DNA of 21,275 nucleotides from positions 1 through 21,275 of the forward strand of contig JAFGBX010000314.1 in assembly GCA_016932935.1 (NCBI GenBank), written 5' to 3'. Source of the stretch: Promethearchaeota archaeon. Lineage in GTDB: Archaea; Asgardarchaeota; Lokiarchaeia; Sigyniarchaeales; Sigyniarchaeaceae. Positions 2-19,872 of the stretch are shown here, piece after piece. A model generated the notes under the pieces. That model saw only the letters and a program-made list of their open reading frames with translations. It made no database searches and was not told the origin of the DNA. How positions within the stretch are numbered: the stretch's first letter is position 1; each line of letters starts with the position of its first letter. Both the position numbers and the translations under genes were made by a program.

Positions 2-2806
2 TCGGCGAGGAATAAGAAATTCTTCGCCGCGGGGTTCATCACGTGTATGGCCGTCGTGCTCGGCGCGGAACTGCTGTTCCCGGCGCTCATGACGGGCGCC
101 CGCGGGCAATTGACGGCCGTCCCGGTCTCGAACACTCTGTACCTCGCCACGCCGTCGGAGCTCGGCAACTCGGACGTGCTGGACGCCTTGCTCCTGGATC
201 CTTCCATCGCCGTGAGTATGAGCTTCAACGGAAGCTTCGGCGGCCACGATTGCGTCGTCTGGGACTCGGCCCGGCCGCTGAACTCGACGGAAGCAGCAGC
301 GCTCGTGGCGTTCGTCCAGAACGGGGGCGGGCTGCTGGCCATCGGGAGCCCGGCACTCGCCGCGAATTCCAGTATTCTGGTCGACCTGGGCATCTTGACG
401 ACGGCATCTGCCTCTGAAAGCTCGAAGCTGACGATCGTCGACATCCCGGCGGCCACGCTGTCGCATCCATTCGCCGGGAAGGTCGAATGGAACTCGATCC
501 CGGAGATCGTGAACTACACGGTCATCCAACGGGGCGACTTGATCGCGACGAACACGACCGTGTTGCTCGACCGGTTCTTGCAGGTGGGCGAGGTGGGGAA
601 CAAGGACCCGCTCCTCGTCGAGAAGCGTCTCGGGGACGGGCGCGTGCTGTTCTACGCGGGGCACTTCGGGTCGGCCGACCGGGATATGAACAAGCAAGTG
701 CGGCTCTGGCCTTACTTCAACTACGTCTTCTACGGCTCGGTCTTGTACCTGTCGGGCGACGAGGCGAGCATCCCGACGTTCGGTAGCTGGGCATACAGCC
801 CCGTGCCGCACGCCAACGATCAAGCGATGATCGCTATTTACGTGACCGCCATGGCGGCGTTCGCCTTCGCCATCTTCTTCATCGTGCGCCGCCGGTCGAG
901 GCGCGTCAAGCTCGATGAGAAGACGCTCGCCGCCGCGCAAGTCGAGGTGAAGAAGGAGGACGAGGTGGCCATCGAGCTCGACGAGGCGAAGAGGCGGCGG
1001 GTGAAGGAGCTCATGGACTCGGGTATGGACCCGGAGGCCGTGTACGCGGAACTGGCGAAGCTGGCCGAGGTCGACCTGCGGGACAAGTGGGAGCAGGTCG
1101 GCAGCCACCGGCAGATAGGCGGGTTCTTATTCGGCTTGTTCATGGGCATCATCGTCATCGTCCCCCAGCTCGTGATCTTCGGTTACATCTTCCCGCAGAT
1201 CGTCTTGCCCTTTCCCCAGGTTAACGGCTGGATGGACATGACCAAGAACTTCTTCGGTGCCATCTGGACAGCCTTCGACGTCGGGACGAGCGTGGCGCTG
1301 GCCAAATACTTCGCCCAGTACCGTGTCAAACAGCCCGAGAAGGCCATCCACTACATCCAGATTTTCGTGTGGTGGCAGATGCTTAGCGGCGTCGTCCAGA
1401 TCACCATCGTCGCCTTGATCGGCTCGATAATCTTCCCGCCGACCTACCTCGCGCACATGTCGTGGATGTTCGTGGTCCACTCGCTCATCCAGTACCCGGG
1501 CTTCTTCCTCGTCCTGCAGTACGTCTTCCAGGGCATGCAGCGCACCGACTACCAACTGGTGTCGCAGCTCCTATACACGATCATCTTCAACGTGCTGTGC
1601 CAGATCGCGTGCATCGTGCTCTTCCGCTGGATCTTCGCGCCGCTGCCCATGTACGGCGAGGCGTTCGGGGCCGGGATCGGTTTCGCCATCGGCCAGTACT
1701 TCGCCGAGTGGGGCACGTTCTTCTTCACGGTCGGCCTGTTCAAGAAGCTCAAGTTCTCCTTGTCGACGATCTTCCGGGCAGATTTCACGCGGGCGGAGTT
1801 CCGGGAGACGATGCGCTTCGGACTCAAGTTCGTGATGGGATCCGTGTGGGTTCCCGCGGTCTGGCTCTTCCAGATGTTCCTTCAGAGCGTTTTCATCAAG
1901 GGATACGCGACGGAAAACGGCTACTTCAACCTGGTCTACACGATCGGGGGCATCGTCGCCGTCGTCGGCCTGTTCATGGAGGGCCTGCTTTCCGGCGTGT
2001 CTGAGGCGCACTCGCACGGCAAGAAGAAGCTGCTCGAGTTGCACACGGTGCAATCGCTCAAGTGGGCGAATTACATCGCGTTCTTCATCGTGACGCTGCT
2101 CTTGATGCTCGGGCCTCGGTTCATCATAGGCTTTTCGGGCGAGGATTGGCTCCCGGCCATAAAATTCATTCCGTGGGTGCTGATATTCCAGCTCCTCGGG
2201 CCGTACTCGTGGTCAGGTGATAAAATGCTCACGGGCGCTGGCCAGACGGGCAAGCTTGCTATCTGCTGGGTCATCGAGCAAATCTCTCGTGCGTTGCTCT
2301 TGCTTGCGTTCATCCCTGGCTTCCAGATGCTGGGCGTGCTCTACGCGTACATCCCGGCCCTCGTGGCCAAGAACATCTCCCTCTGGATCTTCATCTACCG
2401 CTACGTCACGAGGCCGAAGGCCTACTGGCTCGTGGTCTGGATATCGCCAGCCGTGAGCTCGATCATCGTCTACTTCCTCTTCGAATACGCCATCGCGCCT
2501 TTCGTGTGGCAAGGGGACTTGATCTCCACGGCACTCCTGTTCCTGGTCGGGCTCTTCGGTGGCTTGTACCTCTATGCCTTCCTCGCTGGTGTCTTCGGCC
2601 ACTGGGATCGCAACACGATCGCCGAGCTAGACAAGGCGACGCGCATGGTCAAGGTAGTAGGCGTTCTCGCGCGTAGCCTTTACCACGCGTCGCGCGCCGG
2701 CTACATGGTGAGCCCGTTCAAGGACAAGCACCCCGTCGACGTGTTCATGGACGCCATGCGCGAGGCGCACGAGCTCGAGATCGAGAAGAAGGTGCTCAAG
2801 ATCTAG
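2..2806 (+). CDS. Large polytopic membrane protein: extracytoplasmic N-terminal domain + charged helical linker + Wzx/MOP-like polysaccharide/oligosaccharide flippase-type domain; probably 5'-truncated by the window edge
   Basis: The frame is open from nt 2. SARNKKFFAAGFITC precedes the first ATG at 47 and, with MAVVLGAELLFPALM, looks like a basic n-region plus hydrophobic signal/anchor, so the true start is likely left of the window. Residues ~30-260 are hydrophilic with N-x-S/T sequons (NST, NSS, NYT, NTT). Then come a TM segment (AMIAIYVTAMAAFAFAIFFIV), a charged linker (KLDEKTLAAAQVEVKKEDEVAIELDEAKRRR) and at least 12 hydrophobic spans up to TAG 2804-2806. Codons are GC3-rich. The flippase assignment is by architecture only. 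Confidence 0.6.
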   Translation, partial: SARNKKFFAAGFITCMAVVLGAELLFPALMTGARGQLTAVPVSNTLYLATPSELGNSDVLDALLLDPSIAVSMSFNGSFGGHDCVVWDSARPLNSTEAAALVAFVQNGGGLLAIGSPALAANSSILVDLGILTTASASESSKLTIVDIPAATLSHPFAGKVEWNSIPEIVNYTVIQRGDLIATNTTVLLDRFLQVGEVGNKDPLLVEKRLGDGRVLFYAGHFGSADRDMNKQVRLWPYFNYVFYGSVLYLSGDEASIPTFGSWAYSPVPHANDQAMIAIYVTAMAAFAFAIFFIVRRRSRRVKLDEKTLAAAQVEVKKEDEVAIELDEAKRRRVKELMDSGMDPEAVYAELAKLAEVDLRDKWEQVGSHRQIGGFLFGLFMGIIVIVPQLVIFGYIFPQIVLPFPQVNGWMDMTKNFFGAIWTAFDVGTSVALAKYFAQYRVKQPEKAIHYIQIFVWWQMLSGVVQITIVALIGSIIFPPTYLAHMSWMFVVHSLIQYPGFFLVLQYVFQGMQRTDYQLVSQLLYTIIFNVLCQIACIVLFRWIFAPLPMYGEAFGAGIGFAIGQYFAEWGTFFFTVGLFKKLKFSLSTIFRADFTRAEFRETMRFGLKFVMGSVWVPAVWLFQMFLQSVFIKGYATENGYFNLVYTIGGIVAVVGLFMEGLLSGVSEAHSHGKKKLLELHTVQSLKWANYIAFFIVTLLLMLGPRFIIGFSGEDWLPAIKFIPWVLIFQLLGPYSWSGDKMLTGAGQTGKLAICWVIEQISRALLLLAFIPGFQMLGVLYAYIPALVAKNISLWIFIYRYVTRPKAYWLVVWISPAVSSIIVYFLFEYAIAPFVWQGDLISTALLFLVGLFGGLYLYAFLAGVFGHWDRNTIAELDKATRMVKVVGVLARSLYHASRAGYMVSPFKDKHPVDVFMDAMREAHELEIEKKVLKI

Positions 2807-3802: not shown

Positions 3803-5218
3803 ATGGACGAGAAGAGAACGACGTCGCAGCGCGAGCGGCTTCGGCTGCTCGCCAAGTTCCTGCCAGGGACGCCAGCTGCCGCCTCCGCGATCGAACTGCT
3901 GCAGCGGATGATCCGCGTCGACACGACGAACCCGCCCGGCAACGAGATCGCCCTTGCCAGGGATCTGGAGGCCTGGGTGAAATCACGGGGACATAGCTTC
4001 GTCAAAACCCGAATTTTCGAGAGCGAGCCGGGCAGGGCGAGCCTGATCGTCGACATCCCCGGTAACGACCCAGGCAATCACCCGTCGTGGGGTTTCATGA
4101 GCCATCTTGACGTTGTGCCGGCGGAGGGGAAGTGGGCCCATCCCCCCTTCTCTGGCGATCTCGTGCAAGCCGAGCACGATTCGTTCGTCTGGGGGCGCGG
4201 CGCGCTCGACATCAAGTACCTCGGAGCGGCCAACCTCGTGGCGGCATTCACGCTGCTCGACGAGGGGTTCCGGCCAAGGGGGAACATCAAGATCCTACTC
4301 TGCGCCGACGAGGAGAACGGCGGCCACAAGGGGCTCGAGTGGCTCGCCGGCAACCACCTCGACGCGGTCAAGGTCGATTGCTGCCTCAACGAGGGCGGCG
4401 GGTTCAAGCTCCCGATCAAGGACGACTTCGTCATCCAGGTCGGCGAGAAGGGCGTGTTCTGGACGCGGCTCCGGATCCACGGCAAGGGCGGCCACGGCAG
4501 CATGCCCCCGGACTACGGCACGACCGCCATCTACAGGGCTGTCAGGATCCTCGACAAGCTCAAGCGATACAAGGCGAGGCTCACCATCGGCAAAGAATAC
4601 ATTGCCACGATCAGCGCGATCTCCCTCCCGAACTCCCTCAAGGGCTTGATCAAGGCGAAGGGCCTCCTCCGCGGCCTGCTTGCCCTGGCCGAGAGGGCCA
4701 CCCGACTCAAGCTGCGGCAAGTAGTGCTCCCGCTCGTCTCCAACTCGATCGCGGTCACCAACTTCCACTCCGGGGTCAAGGAGAACTCGATCAGCCCGGA
4801 TGCCGAGCTCGTCCTCGACATCCGCACCCTGCCCGGCGTCGGCAGGGCGGAGGTGAACGAGATGATCAGGGAGGCGATCGGCGACGAGCTGTACGGGCAG
4901 GTGGAGGTGGAGCCAATCGCCAACCAGCCATGCACGACCTCGACCATCGACAACCCCTATTACGAGACCATAGCCAGCATCACTGGGGAGATCTATCCAG
5001 GTGCCAACCTCGTACCGTTACTGAGCCAGGGCTCGACGGATAGCAAGTTCTACCGGGAGAAGGGTATGGCAGCGTATGGCTTCTGCCCGACGATCAAGGA
5101 CGACGATCTGACCTACGACCAGCTCCTCGCCATGGCGCACAACGTGGACGAGCGCATCTCGGTCACGAACCTCATGCTCGGCGTCGACTTCGCCTACCGG
5201 GTCATGAAGCGGGTGTAG
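3803..5218 (+). CDS. M20-family metallopeptidase (ArgE/DapE/ACY1/CPG2-like deacylase/dipeptidase)
   Basis: M20 hallmarks: TTNPPGNE near the N-terminus, HLDVVPA (metal-ligand His-x-Asp), GRGALDIKY (catalytic Asp region), CADEENGG (metal/catalytic Glu-Glu), HGKGGHGSMP and a dimerisation-domain-sized insert. Possible GAGG 11 nt upstream of the ATG. Confidence 0.85.
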   Translation: MDEKRTTSQRERLRLLAKFLPGTPAAASAIELLQRMIRVDTTNPPGNEIALARDLEAWVKSRGHSFVKTRIFESEPGRASLIVDIPGNDPGNHPSWGFMSHLDVVPAEGKWAHPPFSGDLVQAEHDSFVWGRGALDIKYLGAANLVAAFTLLDEGFRPRGNIKILLCADEENGGHKGLEWLAGNHLDAVKVDCCLNEGGGFKLPIKDDFVIQVGEKGVFWTRLRIHGKGGHGSMPPDYGTTAIYRAVRILDKLKRYKARLTIGKEYIATISAISLPNSLKGLIKAKGLLRGLLALAERATRLKLRQVVLPLVSNSIAVTNFHSGVKENSISPDAELVLDIRTLPGVGRAEVNEMIREAIGDELYGQVEVEPIANQPCTTSTIDNPYYETIASITGEIYPGANLVPLLSQGSTDSKFYREKGMAAYGFCPTIKDDDLTYDQLLAMAHNVDERISVTNLMLGVDFAYRVMKRV

Positions 5219-8103: not shown

Positions 8104-9573
8104 TCATTTACGCCACGTGTAGATGCATTTCCTGACCTCGGCCTTGCCGTACGCCCCCATCTGCTGGCTGCTGTTTCCCTTCCCGACTGGCAGCGTGGAG
8201 ATGGACTCCGTCTGGAGGCCCGCCGCGATGGCGATGTCGGAGAGGATGATGTCAACGGGGATGACGATGCCCGCGAACCGGACGTTGTCGTTGACGTAGT
8301 AGGCCCTCCCTCCCGCCTTGAGGACGCGGGCTAGCTCGAAGATGACGAACGCGTGCTCGAAGAAGTAGTTCTTGATGAGCCGGTACACGTTCGGGTTGTT
8401 CAACCGGTTGGCATCCTTGAGCTTCTCGAAGTGGTCGTGGATGGCGGCGACGATCTCGTGGCCATCGTGCACGGCCTTGACCCTGGAGAAGAACGAAGCC
8501 CTCCCCTGGCCGGCGTAGAGGTCCTCGAGGTAGGCGACCTTCTCGCGGTTCTCCACCGTGCATGAGAGCAAGGACTGCCGCAGCCGCTTGAGCCCGGCAT
8601 CGTCGACACCCAGGTAGGCGAGCTCAAGCGGGTAGACCCGCGTGTAGTCGTACCGGTTCAAGTAGGGCGGGGACGAGATGACGAGGTCGATCGAGCCGTC
8701 GGGGACGGCGCTGAAGAGCTCGAAGGCGGTTCCCTGACGGAGGTCTACGCTGCCCCTCCGTTCCGTGGCTGGTCGGGCCTGCCCGGCGTTGATGTCCTCT
8801 GACATCACGTCGAGCTGGGCAGCCAGGGCTTCCTCGAAGGGGCGGATCCTGGTCTTCGAGTAAACGACGCGGGCCTTGCCGGATTGGGAGTCCCAGCGGA
8901 GGAATTGGCCACATTTCTCCGTGTAGCTCACTTTTTCCAGGATGGAAAGACCGGCGAGGTGTAGCACGTCGCGCAATCCCTTGTCGCCGATTCGGTTCTC
9001 CACGTGATGCCGGAACGCGCTTATCTTGCGCTCGACGCCCGGCGGGAACGCCATCTCGGAGATGCGGACGTGTTTGAAGGCGGTCTCGTCTTCGGCAGGC
9101 GAGGTCGAGAAGTCGGTGGCGTTGATCTCCCGCACCGCCTCGTCGAAGCTGGCCGGCTGGATCTGCTCGGCGGCGAGCCAGGCCCTGGCCACGAAGGGGC
9201 CTATGGGCAAGAGCTCGAAACCGACCGCGTCGAGGCCGCGTTCCCGCGCCGAGAAGAGGGTCGTGGCGATGCCTGCGAAGGGGTCGAGGACGGTTCCGGT
9301 ATCGATCCCCGATTCTTCGATCAGTCGATCGACGAGCTTGGTCGAGAACCCCTCCTGGTAGCGAAACCAGCGGTAGAACGGGGCATCCTTGTTAGCTTGA
9401 TAGCTTACCACATTGCGGCTGAGCTGCGGATCGACGCGGATCAGCGGCCGGTATCGCCGCTCCGCTCGCTCGAGTAACACGCCGAGGCCGCCTTTCTCCG
9501 CTGGCGCGCCCTGGCCGGGGGTCTTCGTCGAGGCCATGGGTTCGACCGACGCTCCTTCGGCTTGGTAATACAT
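8104..9573 (-). CDS. N6-adenine or N4-cytosine DNA methyltransferase (SPPY catalytic motif), solitary
   Basis: AdoMet motif I region is FRYQEGFSTKLVDRLIEESGIDTGTVLDPFAGIATT. About 190 aa later comes catalytic motif IV DLVISSPPY, then LKAGGRAYYVNDN. The order I...IV with a long spacer suggests an alpha-like permutation. ATG 9537 is an alternative start. Confidence 0.8.
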   Translation of the reverse strand: MYYQAEGASVEPMASTKTPGQGAPAEKGGLGVLLERAERRYRPLIRVDPQLSRNVVSYQANKDAPFYRWFRYQEGFSTKLVDRLIEESGIDTGTVLDPFAGIATTLFSARERGLDAVGFELLPIGPFVARAWLAAEQIQPASFDEAVREINATDFSTSPAEDETAFKHVRISEMAFPPGVERKISAFRHHVENRIGDKGLRDVLHLAGLSILEKVSYTEKCGQFLRWDSQSGKARVVYSKTRIRPFEEALAAQLDVMSEDINAGQARPATERRGSVDLRQGTAFELFSAVPDGSIDLVISSPPYLNRYDYTRVYPLELAYLGVDDAGLKRLRQSLLSCTVENREKVAYLEDLYAGQGRASFFSRVKAVHDGHEIVAAIHDHFEKLKDANRLNNPNVYRLIKNYFFEHAFVIFELARVLKAGGRAYYVNDNVRFAGIVIPVDIILSDIAIAAGLQTESISTLPVGKGNSSQQMGAYGKAEVRKCIYTWRK

Positions 9574-9750: not shown

Positions 9751-10920
9751 TTGTGTAGAACAAGGCTTTTCACCGGCCGAAGGTGTGTCTGTATCAAATT
9801 GATTTTCACGCTTCCCGTGCATAACGAGGAGACGACGCTGGCTAGCACGGTGGCCATCGTACACGAGTACCTCATGGCCAAGTGTCCGATCGACTTCACC
9901 ATCTTGATCGCCGAGGACGGTTCCACGGACAGGACCAAGGACATCGCCCGCGACCTGCAGCGCCGCTTCTCGCACGTCGAGGTGATCACCGAGCCGAAGA
10001 CGCTCGGGCGTGGCCTGGCCCTCAGGCAGGCATGGGCCCAGTACTCGGACGGCGACTTCTATGCGTTCATCGACGCGGACATGGCCGTCCCGATCAAGTA
10101 CTTCTCCCGGCTCCTCCACGGCGTCCTGGAGGAGGGCTACGACTGCGTCATCGGTTCACGGTACGTGAAGGGGTCAGTCGTCGAGAGGCCACGCCTCCGG
10201 CAGATGGTCTCGAAGGCGTACAACTCGCTCCTCGGCTTCTTCTACGCGAGCGACGCGAAGGATCACCAATGCGGCTTCCGCATCTTCAGCAAGGCCATGA
10301 CCGGCGCCATCCTGCGGCATTGCACGTCCGACTCGTGGTTCCTTGACACCGAGTGCCTGGTCATGTTCCAGCGCCGGTTCAAGGTCAAGGAGATCCCGGT
10401 CGAGTGGAACGAGCACCGGACGCGGAAGACCGACCTCAGGCGCTTGTTCAAGGACTTCAAGCGGCACGGCGTCGGGCTGTTCAACCTGGGCAGGTACATG
10501 CTGCGCGTCGACCCGCTCTTCATGTTCGGTTCCGACCTCATGAAGAAACTGCTGAAGTTTTCCGTCGTCGGCTTTGGCAGCTTTGTATTCGTGCTCTTCT
10601 GGACGTTCATCTTCTCGCTCTTCACGAGCGACCAGGTGATCCTCGCAATTGTCAATTCAGTCGCGTTCTTCGTCGCCATGACGTTCCAGTTCAAGCTGAA
10701 CAAGAAATGGACGTTCCACGACAAGAGCAAGAAGGTGAAGAAGCAGTTCAGCTTCGACGTCACGCTCCGCCTCGTCGGTTGGGCGATCTACGAGCTGGTC
10801 TACCTCTTCCTCGCCAGCTTTGGTATGGGGTACATCTTTTCCACCATCGGCGGGGCGGCGGTCTCCGTCCTGTTCAACTTCGTCTGCAACCGCTACATCG
10901 TGTTCTCGAGGCGGATCTGA
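9751..10920 (+). CDS. GT2 glycosyltransferase (polyprenyl/dolichyl-phosphate sugar synthase-like) fused to a C-terminal GtrA-like 4-TM domain
   Basis: FTLPVHNEE, IAEDGSTDRT and FIDADM (DxD) are typical GT-A/GT2 motifs. The C-terminus (LLKFSVVGFGSFVFVLFW ... FNFVCNRYIVFSRR) matches the GtrA family pattern. There is no in-frame ATG near the 5' end. Candidate starts are TTG 9751 or TTG 9799, and TATA-like tatattt at 9732-9738 favours the downstream one. Confidence 0.8.
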   Translation: MCRTRLFTGRRCVCIKLIFTLPVHNEETTLASTVAIVHEYLMAKCPIDFTILIAEDGSTDRTKDIARDLQRRFSHVEVITEPKTLGRGLALRQAWAQYSDGDFYAFIDADMAVPIKYFSRLLHGVLEEGYDCVIGSRYVKGSVVERPRLRQMVSKAYNSLLGFFYASDAKDHQCGFRIFSKAMTGAILRHCTSDSWFLDTECLVMFQRRFKVKEIPVEWNEHRTRKTDLRRLFKDFKRHGVGLFNLGRYMLRVDPLFMFGSDLMKKLLKFSVVGFGSFVFVLFWTFIFSLFTSDQVILAIVNSVAFFVAMTFQFKLNKKWTFHDKSKKVKKQFSFDVTLRLVGWAIYELVYLFLASFGMGYIFSTIGGAAVSVLFNFVCNRYIVFSRRI

Positions 10921-10963
10921 CGGCAACGGGTTATCTCGACAGCGATGCGTCCTCCCAAGCCGC

Positions 10964-11701
10964 TCATTCCCTGGTGCCGACTGCATACGCGCTGACCCCG
11001 AACGGCGCGTTGAGCCCCGATCCGATGAGCTGGTTCTCCATCCGCAACACCCTGATCAAGAAGGCGTTGAGCCTCTGGTTGATTTCCAGGAGGTTGTCCT
11101 TCTTGGGTTCGTTCCGCCTCCAAAATGCTAGGGATTGTGCCACCTTCATGGCGACGGACGGGAGGAACATGGAGAAGTTCCAGTAGCCCGCTTGCAACAC
11201 CTTGAACCCGTTCCTGGCCAGCCTCGCCGCGAGCTCTCCCTTCCGGTACCGGCGCTGGTGGAGGTTGGCGTCGTCGTGAGCCGTCCACAAGAACGAGAAC
11301 GCCGGGACGAACGCCACTAGCTTGCCCCCCGGCCTGAGCACGCGGTGCCACTCGCCCAGCGCCGCGTCCTCGTCCTTGATGTGCTCGAGGACGTCGGAGG
11401 CGATGGCCACGTCGAAGGAGCCCGTGGCCTCCCCGATCCTCGTCGCGTCGCACACGTAGGTCGAGTCGATCCCTCGATCGTGGCACAAGCGCACCGCGAC
11501 CTCGCTGATGTCGAACCCCCTGACCGATCGGCAGCCCCTTCCCATAAAGTCACGCATCAGCGCGCCGCCCGAGCACCCGATGTCGAGCACCTTCTTGCGG
11601 CTGACGTCCCCCACGAGGTTCACGATGATGTCCCTCCTGGCAACGAACCAGTAGTATTTCTCCTCGAGCAGGTGGTACTTCCTCTCGAATTCCTTCTTCA
11701 T
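10964..11701 (-). CDS. Class I SAM-dependent methyltransferase (Methyltransf_11/23-like, of the type common in glycan clusters)
   Basis: Motif I VLDIGCSGGALM, acidic post-I residue in GFDIS, motif II DVAIASDVLEH, and LRPGGKLV. GGTGA lies 9 nt upstream of the ATG. Confidence 0.8.
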   Translation of the reverse strand: MKKEFERKYHLLEEKYYWFVARRDIIVNLVGDVSRKKVLDIGCSGGALMRDFMGRGCRSVRGFDISEVAVRLCHDRGIDSTYVCDATRIGEATGSFDVAIASDVLEHIKDEDAALGEWHRVLRPGGKLVAFVPAFSFLWTAHDDANLHQRRYRKGELAARLARNGFKVLQAGYWNFSMFLPSVAMKVAQSLAFWRRNEPKKDNLLEINQRLNAFLIRVLRMENQLIGSGLNAPFGVSAYAVGTRE

Positions 11702-11782
11702 GGGGCCGGTTCACCGACGTGCGTTCCGTGGTGGTTGGTTTCGTTTCGTTCCTTATCACCTTTCTCCTCGTCCCGGCCCAGG

Positions 11783-12976
11783 TCAGGGATGCCCCGCGGC
11801 GGCCGCTGGCAGCTCCTGGCCGGCGGTAGGGGCCAAGATGGGATCCGGGGGCGATGCCCGCAGCTTCTCGAGCATGTAGAGCGAGAGGAAGAAGACCGAG
11901 CTCAAGGGGATGACGAAGATCGTGCTGACGAGGGCCACCAGGACGAACTTCGCGCGCGCGTACCGTTTATTGTACTTGATCGCCCACGCCACGATGATGA
12001 AGTAGAAGATCCCGTGATGCTGTCCGTAGAACTCGGGCGAGACCAGCATGGTGACGAAGGCGCCGGCGATGTAGAAGTCCTGGCCGTCGAGGCACCGCTT
12101 CCTCCAGAGCACCACGAACGCCCCGTAGCCGACCGCCGCGACGACCACGAGGGCGGCGAGGGGCGATAAAGGGGCGTACAAGGCGAGGAACTTGGTGAGG
12201 CTTCCCGCGAACGCGATCGAGTTGTTGTAGTCGACGATCGCGCTCGTGTTGGCCCTGACGAGCGACGAGATCAGGTGGGGGTAGGCGAGGAGCATGGCGA
12301 CCGAGGGCACGAGGGGCAGCACCATGAAGAACAGCCGCCGGATCAGCTTCCCGATCTTGAACCTCCCTTGGAGGAGCACGATGGGGATCATGAAGATCGT
12401 GATGTGCTTGAACATGACCGAGAGGCCGAGGAAGAAGAACTGCAGCTTCTCGTTACCAACGAGCATCCCGTAGAACGACAGGACCACGCACAGGCCCGCG
12501 GCGACGTTAAACTGGCTGTAGACGTGGTCGGCGCCCTGGGCGGTCATGACCAGGCCCAACGACGCGAGGAGGAGCGCCATCGTCGCGTCGTGGCCCATGA
12601 GGCGGTAGTTCCTCCGGGCGACGACGAAGCTGGCCAGGCTCGTCGCGAGAACCGAGAGGCTGAACGCGAAGATCTTGGCGAGCAAGTCGCCCGGCAGGAA
12701 GTAGAAGGCCATGAGGAGGTACACGAGCTGCGGGGGGTTCTTGAACGGGCAGAGGACGTTGTCGTAGAGGCTGTTCGGGTCGTTGAGCCAGCTGTCCACT
12801 GCCGGCAGCCACGTCCACCGGAGATCCCCGTGAAGGGCCGGGTTGAAGAACAAGTGGTACACTATGGCGATGGTGATGAAGACAGCGTTGCACGCGATGG
12901 CGAGGACGAAGAGGCGGCGCGCGTTGCGCCCGGCAGCGTCGACGATCCGCTGTTGCCTTGTTGCCACGCGGTGCAC
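11783..12976 (-). CDS. Polytopic membrane protein, second GT-C/DUF2029-like glycosyltransferase candidate
   Basis: About 10 hydrophobic spans; FKNPPQLVYLLMAFYF resembles the DUF2029 YPP-type loop. The track ORF (to 13492) overlaps the actin gene out of frame and is R/P/S-rich there. There is no ATG, so the start is assigned to GTG 12976 (or GTG 12967), downstream of the actin stop. Confidence 0.6.
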   Translation of the reverse strand: MHRVATRQQRIVDAAGRNARRLFVLAIACNAVFITIAIVYHLFFNPALHGDLRWTWLPAVDSWLNDPNSLYDNVLCPFKNPPQLVYLLMAFYFLPGDLLAKIFAFSLSVLATSLASFVVARRNYRLMGHDATMALLLASLGLVMTAQGADHVYSQFNVAAGLCVVLSFYGMLVGNEKLQFFFLGLSVMFKHITIFMIPIVLLQGRFKIGKLIRRLFFMVLPLVPSVAMLLAYPHLISSLVRANTSAIVDYNNSIAFAGSLTKFLALYAPLSPLAALVVVAAVGYGAFVVLWRKRCLDGQDFYIAGAFVTMLVSPEFYGQHHGIFYFIIVAWAIKYNKRYARAKFVLVALVSTIFVIPLSSVFFLSLYMLEKLRASPPDPILAPTAGQELPAAAAGHP

Positions 12977-13064
12977 CTTTGTCGCAGCTCGGGATCCGGC
13001 TGCTGATCCAATGCGGCCTCCTTGCGATTTATCGTTTTTCCCCACGGCCGTTGCCCTGCCGTCG

Positions 13065-14204
13065 CTAGCCTCCGGGGATGCCGACCCGGTATCGCTGCAG
13101 GGCCGGGGATGAGAACAGCATGGAGCCCCCGATCCACGAGGAATACTGCCGGCTCTGGCCGCGCGGCTCTGGCGAGAGCACCTTGACGGGGGTCGTGGCG
13201 CGGCCTTGCAGCACCTTTTCCAGCCTCGTCCCGAGGCCAGGGAACAGGCTCGTGCCGCCCGCGAGCACGATGCTCCTCCACAAGGCCGGTCGTACGTCGC
13301 CCGGGCACCCGGCGATGGCGGCGCGTACCAGCGCGTCGATGGGTGGTGCCTGCTTCCCCGCGATGGCGGGATCGAAGAGCAACTCGGGTCCCATGAACCG
13401 GAGGCTGCCCACGGGCAGCTCGCGGCCGTCGGGCATCGCGTACCCTTGTTCCGCGGCTGATTCGGCGCCGGCGGCGGGATCCGCCGCGACATAGCACATC
13501 TGTTCCTTGATGTCCTCCGCGAGGATCAGGCCCTCCGGCGGCCACGGGCGTTCCCCCTCCGGGAGGCGCGTGAACGCGTGCTGGGCAATGTACTGCGTGA
13601 CGTCACGGCCACCCAGGGGAAAGAGCTGGATTGCGGGCCGGACCATGTCGCCATCGACCACGGGCACGACCCAGCCGGTCGTGTCCCCGAGGTCGACCAC
13701 GACGCCCGTCTCCATGCCGGACGCGCGCAACGCCAGCTCCGGCTGCGGGGCCATGTATATCTCCGAGGCGCGCACCTTGTCGCGCATGAACCTCGCCATC
13801 GCGTCGATGTCGCCTTGCTGGGCGGCGGGGGAGCACGTGATGAGGACGGGGCGACTGGCCGGGTCGACGCGCAAGCCGGCGATGAAGAAGTATCTCACGA
13901 CCTTGTCCATCACGTCCCAATCCTTCACGACGCCTCGCTCGCAGAGGTGCTGGATGTTGAGGAACGCCCGCTCCATCGTGATCTCGTACCCGACCGCGTA
14001 CCCGCGCTCGTAGATCTCGTAGTGGTGCCGTTCGACGTCGCTCGGAAACTCGGGCTCGTGCTTGAAATGCCCGACGGCCGCTGGGAGATCGGGGAGGCGC
14101 GGGTAGTCCTCCCCAGCGAAGCCTATCTTGATGGTCGTCGACCCGATGTCGATGACGACAGGCACGGGCTCCGAGTAGGGATCCCGTTGCTGCCCCGATG
14201 TCAC
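13065..14204 (-). CDS. Actin-family protein (eukaryotic actin/crenactin-like)
   Basis: Phosphate-1: VVIDIGSTTIKIGFAGEDYP (cf. actin CDNGSGxxKAGFAGDDAP). ERGVVKDWDVMDKVVRYFF..LRVDPASRPVLITCSP (cf. [38 protein letters not shown]). Phosphate-2: VVVDLGDTTGWVVPVVDG (cf. VxDSGDGVTHxVPIYEG). LGGRDVTQYI (cf. LAGRDLTDYL). Adenosine motif: IVLAGGTSLFPGLGTRLEK (cf. [20 protein letters not shown]). SSWIGGSMLFS (cf. SVWIGGSILAS). GTG 14204 lies 9 nt after AAGGAG (14220-14214); the ORF-maximal TTG at 14213 abuts the SD directly. Confidence 0.85.
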   Translation of the reverse strand: MTSGQQRDPYSEPVPVVIDIGSTTIKIGFAGEDYPRLPDLPAAVGHFKHEPEFPSDVERHHYEIYERGYAVGYEITMERAFLNIQHLCERGVVKDWDVMDKVVRYFFIAGLRVDPASRPVLITCSPAAQQGDIDAMARFMRDKVRASEIYMAPQPELALRASGMETGVVVDLGDTTGWVVPVVDGDMVRPAIQLFPLGGRDVTQYIAQHAFTRLPEGERPWPPEGLILAEDIKEQMCYVAADPAAGAESAAEQGYAMPDGRELPVGSLRFMGPELLFDPAIAGKQAPPIDALVRAAIAGCPGDVRPALWRSIVLAGGTSLFPGLGTRLEKVLQGRATTPVKVLSPEPRGQSRQYSSWIGGSMLFSSPALQRYRVGIPGG

Positions 14205-14294
14205 GAGCCGCAACTCCTTCGCAGATCGGTCTCAGATTTCAGGTCCATCACGGGCTCCTCGTGATCTGTCGTTTTTCACGAGTGGTAAAAAAAC

Positions 14295-14302
14295 ATATAT
14301 AA
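14295..14302 (+). promoter_or_regulatory. TATA box (atatataa) in the actin/serpin divergent intergenic region; may act in both directions
   Basis: It sits in an A-rich context (ggtaaaaaaacatatataacgg), ends 29 nt upstream of the serpin ATG 14332, and is near-palindromic. Confidence 0.45.
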
Positions 14303-14331
14303 CGGTCAGAAAATACAATCAACGGTTTTAT

Positions 14332-15633
14332 ATGAAACCGGGCAGACCGCGGCTAATGAGAGAAGCCTTGGTGTTTGTATACCTCGTGGCAATTTCAGTT
14401 ACAATTTCTGTTCCCTCCTTGATGATGACATTCGTGACCCAACCGGCACCAACCCATTCCCACTTTCCAGATGTTGAGCGTGTGGATGAAACAGAACATC
14501 GCCGGGCTGATGATTCGCTTGCGAACCTTGAAATGATGCAAGTCGTTGCGAATTCGAGCAATTTGTTCGGGATCGATCTCTTTCACGAGCTGTGGGACGG
14601 GGCATCGAACGTCATCTTCTCCCCGTGGAGCATCACTTCGGCAATGCTCGTGCTGCACGAAGGGGCGAGGGGCCAAACCCGGGAGGAAATCGCGAACGTG
14701 TTCCATGTTGGCAGCCTGGACGCTTGGCGCCCAAATTACGCGGGCATTTACAACCGGTTGAGTGACGCAACTGCGTGTAGGGTTAACACGGCCAATGCGT
14801 TCTGGCATGATTTGAGTAATACGCCTGCCGCGGAGTTTATCGAACCGATCAACAAGTATTATTGTGGCGAAGTTCGTGCCGTTGATTTCATGAACCACCC
14901 GGATACTGCATGCAACGATATCAATGAATGGGTTGCGTCCAAGACTGAGAACATGATCGATGGGCTCCTGGATCCAGCAAGTATCTCTCCTGAGACTCGT
15001 TTCACCATCACCAACGCTCTCTACTTTGCCGGGGCATGGGAAACTCAATTTGACCCGAAGAGAACGTACAATGCCACGTTCCACGGGATCGAAGGAAACG
15101 CGACTGTTCCCTTCATGCGACATTCTGGAGGTGCGCTCTTGAACTACATGAGGAACGACATCCTAGAGATGGTCGGAATACCATACGAGGGTAACCAGCT
15201 GGACTTGCTCGTCCTGATCCCGGAGGTAGGATTTGATGCATTCTTGCCAATTCTCTCACTAGATAACATTTATTCTTGGGAGACACAAATGACGGAAGAT
15301 GCATTAGACATCAGATTACCCTCCTTCTCCCTCGATGTAAAATCGGACCTGGCGGGAATTCTTTCCCAGATGGGAATGCCCGTAGCATTTCAACCGGGTG
15401 CTGCCGATCTCTCGGGCATAGATGGTACCCGTGGTGATTTTATCTCCAGCGTGATGCACGGTGCCGCGATCGTTGTGGACGAGGTGGGCACGAAGGCTGC
15501 AGCAGCGACGGCAGGTACAACGACGTGTTATTGCACGATCCCACAGATCGTTGTAGACCATCCATTCATCTTTCTCATCCAGGAACGAACGACCGGCTTG
15601 ATCTTGTTCCTCGGAACGGTCTTAAACGTATAG
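14332..15633 (+). CDS. Serpin (serine protease inhibitor) with an N-terminal signal/membrane anchor
   Basis: FSPWSITSAMLVLHEGARGQTREEI, INEWVASKTENMIDGLL and NALYFAGAWETQFDP. Hinge and reactive-centre loop: DEVGTKAAAATAGTTTCYCTIPQ. C-terminal signature: VVDHPFIFLIQERTTGLILFLGTVLNV. The N-terminal hydrophobic segment is ALVFVYLVAISVTISVPSLMMTFV. Third-codon positions are mixed, unlike the flanking genes. Confidence 0.9.
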   Translation: MKPGRPRLMREALVFVYLVAISVTISVPSLMMTFVTQPAPTHSHFPDVERVDETEHRRADDSLANLEMMQVVANSSNLFGIDLFHELWDGASNVIFSPWSITSAMLVLHEGARGQTREEIANVFHVGSLDAWRPNYAGIYNRLSDATACRVNTANAFWHDLSNTPAAEFIEPINKYYCGEVRAVDFMNHPDTACNDINEWVASKTENMIDGLLDPASISPETRFTITNALYFAGAWETQFDPKRTYNATFHGIEGNATVPFMRHSGGALLNYMRNDILEMVGIPYEGNQLDLLVLIPEVGFDAFLPILSLDNIYSWETQMTEDALDIRLPSFSLDVKSDLAGILSQMGMPVAFQPGAADLSGIDGTRGDFISSVMHGAAIVVDEVGTKAAAATAGTTTCYCTIPQIVVDHPFIFLIQERTTGLILFLGTVLNV

Positions 15634-15665
15634 AAGGTTGAGGAATTGAACCGTTCCGAAAGGCG

Positions 15666-16541
15666 ATGAATTCCATGGCGAGGATCCCAGGCGAGGGTCT
15701 CCCGGATGCCGAAGTCGCGGTGCTGGCCGCGATCGAGGAACTGCTCGGAACAACCATTCCCAAGGTGAAAACGATCGAACATGCCACCACCGGCTTTACA
15801 ACGGGTGACGGGCATGTCACGGGACTTGGCATCCATCACGGCACGTTTTCCACCTTGCCAGCCAGTATTGGAACCCTGACATCACTCACGGAGCTGGATT
15901 TAAGTGACAACACGTTTTCTTCCCTACCCGGAACGATCGGGCAGCTGGTGAACTTGAAAACGCTGAATTTATACAAGAACCATCTATCCTCCCTTCCAGA
16001 AACGATTGGAACCTTGGGAAAGCTCACCAGCCTCAGCATCACGTCGAATCACCTCGAGTGCTTGCCCGAGACGATAGGAAACCTCAAGACCCTGACGAAG
16101 CTCGGCTTGGGGTTCAACCGCTTGTCTTCCTTGCCTGAGACGATGGGAAACCTGGTGAGCGTGACCGAGCTCTTGCTCGTGCACAACCAACTGCGCTCCC
16201 TTCCGGAAACGATCGGGAACTTGCAAGCGCTGCAAACCCTCTGGTTGCATGGCAACAAGCTAGAATCCCTTCCCGACACGATGGGGAACCTCGTGAACTT
16301 GATAGAACTAGGCTTAGGCGCAAACCAGTTGTCTTCCCTGCCTGATACGATGGGCAGGCTTGAATCACTGAAAATGCTTCGACTCGGCGAAAACAAGTTG
16401 ACATCCCTTCCCGAGACGATGAGAAACTTGAAATCCCTCACGTCACTTGATCTCCGGTCAAACCAGTTGTCGTCCTTCATCGAAACGAACAAGCCCTGGA
16501 TCACGGATCTCGAATCACGAGGATGCACAGTCGTGCTGTGA
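15666..16541 (+). CDS. Leucine-rich repeat protein (about 10 x 23-aa repeats), no signal peptide
   Basis: Repeats have consensus LxxLxLxxNxLsSLPETiGNL. The N-terminal ~48 aa (EVAVLAAIEELLGTTIPKVKTIEHATTGF) form a non-repeat cap. Starts 32 nt after the serpin stop on the same strand. Confidence 0.9.
   Translation: MNSMARIPGEGLPDAEVAVLAAIEELLGTTIPKVKTIEHATTGFTTGDGHVTGLGIHHGTFSTLPASIGTLTSLTELDLSDNTFSSLPGTIGQLVNLKTLNLYKNHLSSLPETIGTLGKLTSLSITSNHLECLPETIGNLKTLTKLGLGFNRLSSLPETMGNLVSVTELLLVHNQLRSLPETIGNLQALQTLWLHGNKLESLPDTMGNLVNLIELGLGANQLSSLPDTMGRLESLKMLRLGENKLTSLPETMRNLKSLTSLDLRSNQLSSFIETNKPWITDLESRGCTVVL
15810..16499 (+). repeat. 69-bp periodic coding repeat (about 10 tandem LRR units)
   Basis: Recurrent ...tcccttcc(c/a)ga(g/a)acgat(g/t)gg(g/a)aac(c/t)t... 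every 69 nt. Units are diverged rather than near-identical. Confidence 0.85.
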
Positions 16542-16545
16542 GGGC

Positions 16546-16716
16546 GTGTTCCTTAAGCTTACCAGGCGAGATGGTGTATCCATCCAGCTCTTAACCATCA
16601 CCCATCTGGGGGAGGCCCGCCAGCTCGAGTCAAGGGTGAAGGGCCTCATCGCTAAAGGGCACGTCGAGAAAATCATACGAGATGGAAGGATTCTTTATAG
16701 AAAGAAGGCAACATAG
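16546..16716 (+). CDS. Possible small (56 aa) winged-helix-like protein
   Basis: GTG 16546 lies 4 nt after the LRR stop. LGEARQLESRVKGLIAKGHVEKIIRDGRILYRKK resembles a recognition helix plus wing hairpin of wHTH regulators. Short, non-ATG start, no clear RBS. Confidence 0.25.
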   Translation: MFLKLTRRDGVSIQLLTITHLGEARQLESRVKGLIAKGHVEKIIRDGRILYRKKAT

Positions 16717-17008
16717 AGGGATAAAGAGATACCGATACCGAGTTCTGATGGGTTCGGATGGTGCCAGCATACCTCTGACCGTTCCGCAGAACAGTTTGTT
16801 CGTTTCCGTGGCTTGAGTGACCACAGTACTTAAGACAACGGTAAGCTGCTTAATTTTCGGGTTCCAGCACCCAGCACGCTAATTGCGTGGAACTCGTCGG
16901 ACTCTCGCTCAAGGCGAGTTACTTAGTTGAATTCTGCAGCCTATTTAATCCTTGCAACCCGGCGGGCGAACGATTTTCCTCGATTTTCTCTCGTACTGGA
17001 TCGGTGAT

Positions 17009-17728
17009 TCACGGGTATCGTATCAGGTAGTTCACGTTCGACTTCGCATCCCGTTCGACGCGATACGGGAGGTCCTGCGATTTAATTATCGCCTCTACGA
17101 AATCTTTGAAGCTAGCAAACCCGATCAACGATTCATGGAAGCTAGGATCGAGCTTGAGCATCATGTTCTTGTGCTGCGGGATGTCCATGGCATCCCCTCT
17201 ATCTTCCCTGATGCGTATGACTTGCTTGAATAGATTGGTGGCAGCATTCATGTCCACATCGACCTTGCCGCCTGCGCCGAATATCTCGCAAGGGATGAAC
17301 TCGTCGCAGTTTTGTTGGATAATTGGCGCCGCCAACACCTTCGACGACAGCACGATCACGTACCGCCCGTGCTCCCGCAGTTTCCGAACGAGCGGGATGA
17401 AATCGCTGTCGCCCGATGCGATCGCGTACACGTCGATGTCCGGGTGCAGGAAGACTGCCTCGATAGCGTCCGTCGCGAGCTTGATGTCGGCGCCGTTCTT
17501 CCCGCTCGAGGCCAACGCTGGTTGGTCGATCAGCTCGAGCCCGTTCTCCACGAGCTCCTTTCGATACGCCTCGTACTTGCACCAGTCCCCGTACGCTCGC
17601 CGTATGCTCAGCACGCCATGTTCCGACAGTTTTTGGATTATCGGCCGGATCTTGAATCCTTTACCGAAGCTGTTGAAGAAGTTCTCGAAATCGACGAACA
17701 GCGCCAGCCGGCGGGAACCATCGACCAT
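17009..17728 (-). CDS. NYN-domain (LabA-like, PIN-fold) RNase fused to a C-terminal OST-HTH/LOTUS domain
   Basis: NYN motifs: LALFVDFENF, RAYGDW, GKNGADIKLATDAIE, DVYAIASGDSDFIPLVRKLREHGRYVIVL. C-terminal LDPSFHESLIGFASFKDFVEAII fits the OST-HTH pattern. ATG 17728 (MVDGS...); the track start GTG 17737 is an alternative. Confidence 0.8.
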   Translation of the reverse strand: MVDGSRRLALFVDFENFFNSFGKGFKIRPIIQKLSEHGVLSIRRAYGDWCKYEAYRKELVENGLELIDQPALASSGKNGADIKLATDAIEAVFLHPDIDVYAIASGDSDFIPLVRKLREHGRYVIVLSSKVLAAPIIQQNCDEFIPCEIFGAGGKVDVDMNAATNLFKQVIRIREDRGDAMDIPQHKNMMLKLDPSFHESLIGFASFKDFVEAIIKSQDLPYRVERDAKSNVNYLIRYP

Positions 17729-17790
17729 TTTACACACTTGTTTCTAGTGCGACACGGCGAGTTAAACGTGATCATAATCGCTCGTAGGCA

Positions 17791-18082: not shown

Positions 18083-18385
18083 ATGGCCAACATCACCCTG
18101 AGCATCGACAACCGCATCCACGAGCGCATGAGGGCGTATCCCGAGATCAAGTGGACGGAGGTCGTGCGGAGGGCGATCCTCGATTACCTCGCCAAGCTCG
18201 ATGAGGCCGAGAGCATCCCTTCCACCGACTTGTGGAACCAGCTGGACGTGGAAACCCAGGCGCGTCTCAGATCCATGATGGATCACGTCGATCTCGACGA
18301 GGAACTCGTCGTCCAAGAACGGATGCACGCCCAGGAAAGCGAGCGATTGGATTCCCAACTGCGCGTCGAGCGTGGTCGCGAATGA
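18083..18385 (+). CDS. vapB: Antitoxin, ribbon-helix-helix (CopG/VapB-like)
   Basis: MANITLSIDNRIHERMRAYPEIKWTEVVRRAILDYL has a beta-strand/helix/helix pattern. The stop overlaps the PIN gene start (ATGA at 18382-18385). The acidic C-terminal tail is typical of a toxin-binding region. Confidence 0.7.
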   Translation: MANITLSIDNRIHERMRAYPEIKWTEVVRRAILDYLAKLDEAESIPSTDLWNQLDVETQARLRSMMDHVDLDEELVVQERMHAQESERLDSQLRVERGRE

Positions 18386-18795
18386 GCACGTGGTTACTCG
18401 ACACGAGCGCGGTGATCCGCTGGTTCAAGCAGTCGGGGAAGCGCATTTTCGACCACGGGTTCAACACCTCGATACTGACCGTGGTCGAGTTCCCCGTGCT
18501 CGCAGCATACCCGGGATTCAGCGTGCTCTATCCGACACCCGCCATCTACAAGAAAGCCGTTGCGTCTGCTTCCGCGCTGCGAAAAATCGGTTCGATCATC
18601 CCGGCGGTAGACCTGGTCATCGCCTCGACCGCGATCGAGAGAAACTTAACGTTGGTCTCCGACGATGACCACTTCATTGTCCTGGAGAAGGTCGAGCCGG
18701 GGCTGCATCATGTCTCCCTAGCCGCGTTCTTGCTGAAGATTGATCGTGGGGGTGGCGGTGCTGGTGCCGTGCCCCAGAAAGGCGGCAAGAGATGA
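18382..18795 (+). CDS. vapC: PIN-domain toxin (VapC-like ribonuclease)
   Basis: Conserved acidic residues in the expected order: LLDTS (Asp), VVEF (Glu), AVDLVIAS (Asp), SDDDHF (Asp). 4-nt overlap with the upstream antitoxin. Confidence 0.8.
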   Translation: MSTWLLDTSAVIRWFKQSGKRIFDHGFNTSILTVVEFPVLAAYPGFSVLYPTPAIYKKAVASASALRKIGSIIPAVDLVIASTAIERNLTLVSDDDHFIVLEKVEPGLHHVSLAAFLLKIDRGGGGAGAVPQKGGKR

Positions 18796-19248: not shown

Positions 19249-19872
19249 TCACTCCAGCCAGAAGGGCACCCGGAGGCCGCCCGGCAGCCCGGGTTCCCTG
19301 GCCCCGCCGTGGAAGATGTCGTGGACGAGGAACGACGTCAAGTCGGACGCGTAGAGGATGATGTCGTCGCCGTACATCGACAGGACGGGGTTCGACGCGC
19401 AGCGATCCACGACGAGAAACCGGTGCCCCACGATGGGCACGACGTGCGGTATCTGCCTCGCCTCGACGTCCGCGGGCGTGACGCGGCACGACTCGTGGAT
19501 CCATTCGATCATCTCGTGCATCTTCGGCACGTCCTTGGGGTAGGCATAGTACCCCGGCGCGTACCGCACCGGCTCGCCCGAGCGCCCGTAGATGTTGATG
19601 GCCTCCTTGTCGGTGCCGTTCATCGCCCGCAAGTAGAGCTTGTAGACGGGCGGGAACGCGAGGCCCATGTCCTCCTCAAACCTGGCGATCTCGTCGTCGG
19701 AGAGGCCGTCGTTCCACCTGGTTCCCGGCTGGACCTGGAAGCCGTAGACATCGTCCCGTAACACGGCGTCCTTCCAGCGCGCCTCGCTCTCCCGCTTGAG
19801 CCACGCGAAAAACCGTGCCGGGTCATTCGGGACACTTGTCTCTGGCTCGGTCGTCGGCATCGGGTTGATCAC
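19249..19872 (-). CDS. SMI1/KNR4-family (SUKH-1 superfamily) protein
   Basis: IARFEEDMGLAFPPVYKLYLRAMNG (the ligand/partner-binding N-terminal motif of SMI1/KNR4) and ...VPIVGHRFLVVD... GAGG lies 9 nt upstream of GTG 19872. Confidence 0.7.
   Translation of the reverse strand: MINPMPTTEPETSVPNDPARFFAWLKRESEARWKDAVLRDDVYGFQVQPGTRWNDGLSDDEIARFEEDMGLAFPPVYKLYLRAMNGTDKEAINIYGRSGEPVRYAPGYYAYPKDVPKMHEMIEWIHESCRVTPADVEARQIPHVVPIVGHRFLVVDRCASNPVLSMYGDDIILYASDLTSFLVHDIFHGGAREPGLPGGLRVPFWLE
19405..19554. repeat. Direct repeat copy B (150 bp), inside the intact SUKH gene
   Basis: See copy A: 137/150 identity, same orientation, 1537 bp apart. Confidence 0.9.

Follow-up and report, generated by a model that had tools for sequence, protein, structure and literature searches.

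The gene encoding a divergent actin-family protein is located on the minus strand, at positions 13065..14213, of a 21,275-nucleotide contig of Promethearchaeota archaeon (JAFGBX010000314.1, assembly GCA_016932935.1), the whole of which is here denoted the window. As the initial annotation had noticed, the open reading frame (ORF) is present and intact, encoding 382 amino acids when counted from a TTG codon in the ORF listing, and its match to the Pfam Actin profile (E = 1.5e-70) is far beyond chance. The protein, MBN2153032.1 (here denoted the query, or P0001), is already in GenBank as "actin family protein" and is labelled Lokiarchaeota, a label that derives from the binning of the metagenome-assembled genome (MAG). 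Features of the gene are given below; residue numbers refer to human beta-actin (ACTB).

13065..14204, minus strand: coding sequence of the divergent actin-family protein, 379 amino acids plus stop codon, an exact match to MBN2153032.1
14205..14213, minus strand: three additional codons from the upstream TTG at 14213, which abuts the Shine-Dalgarno-like motif; probably untranslated
14214..14220, minus strand: Shine-Dalgarno-like motif GAAGGAG, read off the sequence, its role putative
14127..14150, minus strand: phosphate-1 (P1) loop DIGSTTIK (actin D11-K18), in which the ACTB alignment shows D11, S14 and K18 kept and G15 replaced by Thr
14001..14069, minus strand: enlarged D-loop (DNase I-binding loop) region of subdomain 2, HFKHEPEFPSDVERHHYEIYERG, carrying the lokiactin-type motif SDVE and predicted to be partly helical
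13671..13694, minus strand: phosphate-2 (P2) loop DLGDTTGW (actin D154-H161), with D154, G156 and D157 kept, G158 and V159 replaced by Thr, and H161 replaced by Trp
13236..13265, minus strand: adenosine-binding motif LAGGTSLFPG (actin G301-G302 region), conserved in the alignment
13068..13136, minus strand: C-terminal segment WIGGSMLFSSPALQRYRVGIPGG, which stops ~13 residues short of where actin ends, so that W356 and the final helix up to F375 are absent

The GenBank start, GTG 14204, lies 9 nt downstream of GAAGGAG, and the N-terminus of the closest homolog (P0002, described below) aligns there. Because of this spacing and this N-terminal match, GTG 14204 is the preferred start, and 13065..14204 delimits the coding sequence better than 13065..14213. 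The peptides quoted in the initial annotation, VVIDIGSTTIKIGFAGEDYP, ERGVVKDWDVMDKVVRYFF, LRVDPASRPVLITCSP, VVDLGDTTGWVVPVVDG, LGGRDVTQYI, IVLAGGTSLFPGLGTRLEK and SSWIGGSMLFS, all occur in the translation. Its remark that the product is close to actin in length holds for the total, which masks a D-loop region longer by 8 residues and a C-terminus shorter by 13. A 569-aa ORF at 11783-13492 on the minus strand is over-extended and runs, in a different frame, into the 3' end of the actin gene; the probable start of the GT87 glycosyltransferase encoded there is an in-frame GTG at 12976, leaving a gap of ~90 bp to the actin gene.

Profile searches placed the query in the actin family proper. The Pfam Actin profile (PF00022) scored 238.3 bits with a cut-off of 27, and the rival Pfam profiles stayed under their cut-offs: FtsA 20.8 bits (cut-off 31.8), MreB 17.5 (27) and Salactin 11.6 (27.1). 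The NCBIfam profiles MamK (13.5 bits, threshold 400) and ftsA (11.4 bits, threshold 175.85), as well as syringactin and salactin, were also far under threshold. The top sequence match in the PDB was HC1 actin (9wc4, 221 bits), which is the lokiactin from a Hodarchaeales strain in culture (bioRxiv 10.1101/2025.02.26.640444), and next came actins of yeast and other eukaryotes at ~190-198 bits; the 60 best PDB sequence matches consist of this Asgard lokiactin and eukaryotic actins. An AlphaFold2 model made from a 41-sequence alignment (predicted local distance difference test 92.6, predicted template modelling score 0.91) has the four-subdomain actin fold, subdomains 2 and 4 included. All of the best 50 Foldseek matches of the model in the PDB were eukaryotic actins, with template modelling (TM) scores of 0.83-0.90 and a root-mean-square deviation (rmsd) of ~2 A over 364-381 columns (~367). 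Two of the checks proposed with the initial annotation, the profile comparison of Actin (238 bits) with FtsA and MreB (~20 bits) and the structural superposition, thus spoke for actin, and none of the outcomes named there as refuting the actin reading was observed.

The P1 and P2 loops of the query, GSTT and GDTT, look like the generic form found in ATPases of the ASKHA fold. Together with the faint FtsA and MreB scores, this is what could be cited for the query being another ASKHA-fold ATPase (MreB, ParM, FtsA, Hsp70 or a sugar kinase) and not an actin proper. Against that identity stand the distance of the Actin score from its cut-off, the sub-threshold scores of the remaining Pfam and NCBIfam families, and top sequence and fold matches that are all actins; the profile, sequence and fold matches rule it out, leaving it next to no probability. 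The query is almost certainly an actin-family, nucleotide-binding protein.

In actin, D11, S14, K18, D154-G158 and G301-G302 form the site that binds nucleotide and metal, Q137 together with H161 places the water for hydrolysis, and the cleft between subdomains 1 and 3 takes, together with the C-terminus, the D-loop of the next subunit and binds profilin, gelsolin, cofilin and WH2 domains. The alignment to ACTB showed that D11, S14, K18, Q137, D154, G156, D157 and G301/G302 are kept in the query, and that G15T, G158T, V159T, H161W and K336Q are changed. The catalytic pair is therefore broken, Q137 being there and H161 being replaced by Trp. K213 and E214 are kept in the query only, P0002 having Leu and Val at these positions. 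Changes in the barbed-end hydrophobic cleft comprise R147M, T148E/D, Y169D/E, L349S and M355Y. The D-loop region counts 26 residues, versus 18 in ACTB and 20 in lokiactin, and the AlphaFold2 model places a helix at residues 57-67; the tail past G343 counts 19 residues, versus 31-32 in conventional actin and lokiactin. H161W, the loop changes, the long D-loop and the short C-terminus are all common to the query and the 60%-identical P0002. The C-terminal truncation is genuine, since P0002 matches the query in length and in where it ends, the three independent assemblies of P0002 are identical, and no remnant of the C-terminal helix was found in any downstream frame of the window or of the homolog locus (L001); a frameshift or assembly error behind the short C-terminus was rejected accordingly.

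We surveyed these positions in 216 actin-family sequences. Q137, H161 and G158 are invariant in the conventional actins and lokiactins (102/102), and position 169 is aromatic in the same 102/102 and Asp or Glu in the query and its homolog. Among divergent ARP-like (actin-related protein-like) members, only 35/111 retain the Q137/H161 pair. Position 161 is Trp in 4/216 sequences, and three of these are members of the subfamily of the query. By its residue pattern, the query appears to fall with the actin-related, non-conventional members. The fourth sequence, P0111 (348 aa, 39% identical to the query), is the only one outside the subfamily with Trp161 (VVDLGDRESWAVPVVDG), and its C-terminal tail is short as well; distant relationship, convergence or truncation of the gene call could each account for this.

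An exhaustive phmmer search of 1.84 billion (1.84e9) cluster representatives returned 10,210 actin-family matches, among which a single one was close: P0002, at 514 bits and 60% identity, the next match scoring 260 bits. The subfamily forms a single cluster at 50% identity among the 1.84e9 representatives. P0002 is MDO8115110.1 from a Sigynarchaeota MAG and has 379 aa like the query. P0062 is a longer gene call of the P0002 protein, found on short contigs (JGI 3300032118, ENA ERZ27247687 and Logan SRR9616672). Pattern scans of GTDB representative genomes and of JGI metagenomes detected no further members, and no description of the subfamily was found in the literature, within an incomplete coverage of it. 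Identity between the query and P0002 is even across the subdomains (56-66%), the D-loop region reaching 66% versus 60% overall.

On trimmed columns, the identity of the query is 39% with ACTB and ~42% with lokiactin. P0003 and related sequences are identified as lokiactins by their match to the published lokiactin antibody peptides (PMC9834061); their mutual identity of 78-99% spans Heimdall, Hod, Kari and other lineages among the matches listed. Measured by the conservation of conventional actins and lokiactins, the latter being 78-99% identical to each other and ~60% identical to eukaryotic actin, the query lies outside. A neighbour-joining tree (100 bootstraps, 115 non-redundant sequences) united P0001 and P0002 with 100% support, the deeper nodes receiving 0-38%; the nearest sequences by distance were lokiactins, and the named Arp1 and Arp4 of the set did not attach to the subfamily. 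The phylogeny with actins and ARPs suggested in the initial annotation therefore secured the pair and left its deep placement weakly supported. Most lokiactin-like sequences (72/88) carry the D-loop motif [ST]DV[ED], which recurs among the remaining 128 in the subfamily's three only, counts that come from a biased set of matches to the query and to one Heimdall lokiactin. We take this shared derived motif as evidence of moderate strength for a descent of the subfamily from the lokiactin lineage, in keeping with the lokiactin as top PDB match.

Like lokiactin (HC1 actin 9wc4; that of 'Ca. Lokiarchaeum ossiferum'), the query has an Asgard host, a full actin fold and a similar length, the [ST]DV[ED] motif (SDVE in the query), and D11, S14/T14, K18, Q137, D154 and G301/G302. 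It differs in its ~42% identity, in H161W, G158T, Y169D/E, R147M and L349S, in a D-loop region 6 residues longer and in ~13 missing C-terminal residues, and it is, as judged from the captured loci and the 1.84e9 representatives, rare and patchy instead of universal. Asgard ARP-like paralogs share with the query that they are divergent and patchy, shaped by gains and losses; the loss of catalytic residues in the query is of the kind seen in many divergent family members. Asgard genomes contain lokiactin and several such paralogs with complex histories of gain and loss, and 'Ca. L. ossiferum' has three actin homologs that are not lokiactins (PMC9834061). The query is likened to the L. ossiferum ARPs by description, and in the neighbour-joining sample it showed no supported grouping with any sequence apart from P0002.

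Eukaryotic actin and ARPs (Arp1-Arp10) have the same order of motifs as the query, with TM 0.83-0.90, rmsd ~2 A and 33-39% identity, but the query is prokaryotic, shows no supported affiliation to an ARP class in the tree and is without H161 and the C-terminal helix of conventional actin. Crenactin of TACK archaea and BARP of myxobacteria are, like the query, prokaryotic members of the actin-proper family; the query differs in that its host is an Asgard archaeon and neither TACK nor bacterial. Crenactin is set apart also by its absence from the 60 best PDB sequence matches and the 50 best fold matches, no pairwise comparison aimed at it having been made, and the Nannocystaceae actin P0009 is only 38-40% identical to the query and does not group with it.

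The origin of the contig was examined apart from the MAG label. The best matches of the M20 peptidase gene product (3803-5218) were from Sigynarchaeota MAGs (78-81% identity), followed by "Lokiarchaeia"/Sigynarchaeota at 71% and other Promethearchaeota (Asgard) at <=60%. Loci syntenic with the window (L004-L010) were found in GCA_030587545/475/505, GCA_041305925 and the Logan runs DRR438506/8/9. Identities between the window and these relatives were 81-87% for a 919-aa protein, 64-81% for the following ORF, 80-81% for M20, 69-84% for the MFS_2 transporter and 77-81% for a type II DNA methylase; on the far side they were 81% for an NYN protein, or 56-66% for orf18869, SUKH and orf20005. Flanking genes are 62-87% identical in the syntenic Sigynarchaeota/Asgard loci. 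Because of the M20 matches and this synteny, the contig is very probably of Asgard, Sigynarchaeota-related origin, in line with the archaeal genome that the initial annotation had thought probable. Sigynarchaeota have been described from sediments of hot springs and as a sister lineage of Lokiarchaeota (bioRxiv 10.1101/2021.04.02.438162).

The G+C content of the window is 60.7%, lower than the ~65-70% that had been assumed for the genome; that of the actin gene is 68%. The native, GC-rich codon usage claimed for the gene was confirmed: its G+C content at third codon positions (GC3) is 0.88, compared with 0.86-0.90 for conserved core genes, and since it equals that of the core genes, the actin gene is compositionally native. 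These data bear on the idea that the gene was acquired recently, by horizontal transfer, from a eukaryotic or bacterial (BARP-like) donor, or that the contig is mis-binned and non-archaeal. Such an origin would go along with the variable interval in which the gene lies, with the atypical codon usage of its neighbours (GC3 0.59 for a serpin gene and 0.69 for a leucine-rich-repeat gene), with bacterial actin-family proteins of comparable identity (Pseudomonas P0007, 32%; Nannocystaceae P0009, 38%) and with a taxonomic label that derives from MAG binning. It is contradicted by the core-like GC3 of 0.88, by flanks that are syntenic with several independent Sigynarchaeota/Asgard assemblies, by an only close homolog that resides in another Sigynarchaeota organism, by the lokiactin-specific D-loop motif and by the lack of any eukaryotic or bacterial sequence above 40% identity, and we consider it highly improbable.

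The actin gene is found in a part of the window that differs among relatives:

9751..16541, no strand assigned: variable interval with the actin gene, containing GT2/GtrA, S-adenosylmethionine (SAM) methyltransferase, GT87, actin, serpin and leucine-rich-repeat (LRR) genes, defined by Pfam and by tblastn synteny against L004-L010

Upstream of the actin gene is the divergently oriented serpin gene, and downstream are genes of the GT87 glycosyltransferase, the SAM methyltransferase and a GT2/GtrA glycosyltransferase. Conservation in the relatives covers the part up to 9.6 kb and also the part beyond 17 kb wherever it has been sequenced. Past the conserved block, a fused GT2-GtrA-GT87 gene is found in L004-L006 together with a small ORF and a gene for enoyl-CoA hydratase, and L008-L010 carry a PMT_2 glycosyltransferase gene alone between the methylase and NYN genes; L007 breaks off within the methylase gene, before the interval is reached. 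No actin was detected by tblastn in the captured sequence past the conserved block of L004-L006 and L008-L010, whose M20 is 80-81% identical, and no ortholog from the MAGs of these closer relatives was among the protein-search matches. In contrast, the more distant organism with the 60% homolog has an M20 that is only 71% identical and comes from exactly the same three samples as the P0062 contigs. Its actin gene is flanked by a gene for an Mpt_N-domain protein upstream and by CitMHS and CorA transporter genes downstream. A conserved operon or partner gene was accordingly rejected, the two actin loci being without common neighbours. The subfamily is patchily distributed, without a conserved partner gene.

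Between the same pair of organisms the actin (60% identity) has diverged faster than M20 (71%). This faster divergence from a housekeeping neighbour, the position in a variable interval and the loss of the catalytic His and the C-terminal helix speak for a decaying, non-functional relic of an actin gene. A relic fits poorly with an ORF that is intact and 379 aa long in both lineages and whose derived traits they share at 60% identity, with conserved nucleotide-binding motifs, with identity spread evenly over the subdomains (56-66%), with a confidently predicted fold, with a codon usage adapted to each host (GC3 0.88 in the query versus 0.55 at L001) or with the Shine-Dalgarno-like motif before the start. 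We regard decay as very unlikely; the gene is intact and has the look of an expressed gene.

Together, the data suggest that the query is probably an accessory, lineage-restricted, ARP-like actin paralog that stems from the lokiactin lineage and is not the main filament-forming actin. Taken by itself, an accessory role as a putative paralog, rather than that of the main actin, is somewhat better backed and seems fairly likely. The competing explanation is that the query is the organism's sole cytoskeletal actin, a fast-evolving lokiactin ortholog that builds the main F-actin-like filaments. It draws on the lokiactin as top PDB match, the lokiactin-type D-loop motif, the native codon usage, the full and high-confidence actin fold, the retention of D11, S14, K18, Q137, D154, G156 and G301/G302, and of K213/E214 in the query only, and the lack of a second actin within the 21-kb window. 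However, three features that are invariant in the conventional actins and lokiactins (102/102), namely H161, G158 and the C-terminal helix, are missing from the query. Closer relatives have no actin in their captured downstream sequence, and protein searches gave no ortholog from their MAGs. Furthermore, profilin genes have been reported in Sigynarchaeota (bioRxiv 10.1101/2021.04.02.438162), and these imply a profilin-competent actin. A role as sole actin is in our judgement unlikely.

Several points weigh against the query being an accessory paralog derived from lokiactin. Q137 and most phosphate-binding residues are kept, so hydrolysis may persist. The deeper bootstrap values do not exceed 38%, and the lokiactin descent is argued from one motif, counted in the biased sequence set, together with a slightly higher similarity. 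MAG incompleteness could mimic absence in the relatives outside the syntenic interval, and L007 stops short of it. A co-resident canonical lokiactin is presumed, the analysis having covered the window and the loci of the relatives; in the search with the lokiactin P0003, the matches listed (at least 120) are Heimdall, Hod, Kari or eukaryotic, which is uninformative on a Sigynarchaeota lokiactin.

The retention of most binding residues suggests that the query would still bind ATP/ADP-Mg. H161W, together with the Thr-rich P2 loop (DLGDT), would probably render hydrolysis slow or differently triggered, and the cleft changes and the lost C-terminal helix may alter the docking of profilin, of gelsolin and of a neighbour's D-loop; with regard to F-actin-like polymerisation and to regulation by profilin and gelsolin, the cleft residue changes are only suggestive. 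The D-loop on one side of the longitudinal contact, and the cleft with the C-terminus on the other, are both remodelled, in a manner conserved between the two orthologs. A remodelled D-loop and cleft would fit a self-compatible, lokiactin-incompatible polymer or an ARP-like binding module. Accordingly, the accessory paralog could form its own homopolymer, insulated from lokiactin and the lokiactin regulators, or could act as a nucleotide-dependent ARP-like module that binds lokiactin filaments or partner proteins. That it forms filaments of its own we hold to be possible, at slightly less than an even chance. Family, fold, residue changes, rarity, Asgard host, native codon usage and patchy distribution are observed here, whereas nucleotide binding, impaired hydrolysis, altered partner binding and paralog status are deduced from them.

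The query fits a known kind, the Asgard actin-family paralogs, and its existing annotation already names it an actin-family protein. What is new is a very small subfamily defined by H161W, an enlarged D-loop and a truncated C-terminus, and evidence of an accessory role. The initial annotation expected a phylogenetically informative copy; it is an Asgard actin, but a divergent paralog that was already annotated and not a new actin-bearing lineage, and it is less informative than hoped because it belongs to a known Asgard category, is divergent and has a deep placement supported at 0-38%. The overall picture is unchanged, as several actin-family paralogs per Asgard genome were already known. Asgard actins, along with the proteins that regulate them, hold a central place in ideas on the origin of the eukaryotic cytoskeleton, and the subfamily shows that actin paralogs kept arising, diverging and getting lost inside single Asgard lineages. 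The query would moreover be a handy natural mutant for the roles of the catalytic His and the C-terminal helix in an archaeal actin. A bolder scenario, which we put forward tentatively and consider rather unlikely, is prokaryotic actin-to-ARP neofunctionalisation within one Asgard lineage: a lokiactin duplicate would have lost the catalytic His and the C-terminal helix while its D-loop and cleft co-evolved, yielding a second filament system, poor in hydrolysis and insensitive to profilin and gelsolin, or a protein capping or nucleating lokiactin filaments. If true, the neofunctionalised paralog would be an independently arisen functional analogue of the eukaryotic ARPs.

The intergenic region between the divergent actin and serpin genes (14205-14331) comprises 127 bp, is AT-rich and contains one further feature:

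14295..14302, no strand assigned: TATA-like palindrome TTATATAT, candidate shared archaeal promoter element, read off the sequence

The palindromic TATATA element lies ~30-40 nt before the serpin ATG and ~90 nt before the actin start, and its spacing to the serpin ATG would fit a leaderless serpin transcript. The serpin gene (14332-15633, plus strand) encodes 433 aa with a hydrophobic N-terminus (Pfam Serpin, 290 bits; GC3 0.59), and 33 bp past it is the leucine-rich-repeat protein gene (15666-16541, plus strand; GC3 0.69). Neither is in the captured sequence past the conserved block of the related genomes, and both were probably acquired recently, as far as composition and distribution indicate. 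PADLOC gave no match for the actin, the serpin or the LRR protein, its matches in the window being limited to the type II methyltransferase and to weak NYN and mad2 hits; membership of these three proteins (actin, serpin, LRR) in a defence system within the variable island was rejected on this ground. The window yielded neither RNA genes nor tRNAs.

The glycosylation genes next to the actin gene (9751-12976: GT2 plus GtrA, SAM methyltransferase, GT87) differ between close relatives, with a fused 776-aa GT2-GtrA-GT87 gene in the Sigynarchaeota MAGs (L004, 13378-15708) and PMT_2 in the Logan contigs (L008, 14805-15863). The SAM methyltransferase is the partial PADLOC 'mad2' match (51 bits). The 919-aa protein (47-2806, plus strand) has no Pfam or PADLOC match; at 81-87% identity throughout the related Sigynarchaeota loci, it is a conserved protein specific to the lineage. 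The type II DNA methyltransferase (8104-9573, minus strand; PADLOC MTase_II, 390 bits; 77-81% in L007-L010) looks like an orphan methylase, no restriction-enzyme domain being detected in the adjoining genes. The NYN gene (17009-17737, minus strand) is 81% identical to that of L008-L010 (in L008 at 16690-17415, plus strand), but its orientation relative to M20 is reversed, which points to an inversion or rearrangement at the margin of the variable interval. Beyond the island lie a PIN-domain gene (18232-18795, plus strand) and a SUKH/SMI1-family gene (19249-19872, minus strand), and PIN and MazE-PIN toxin-antitoxin-like genes are present near related loci (L004 and L014).

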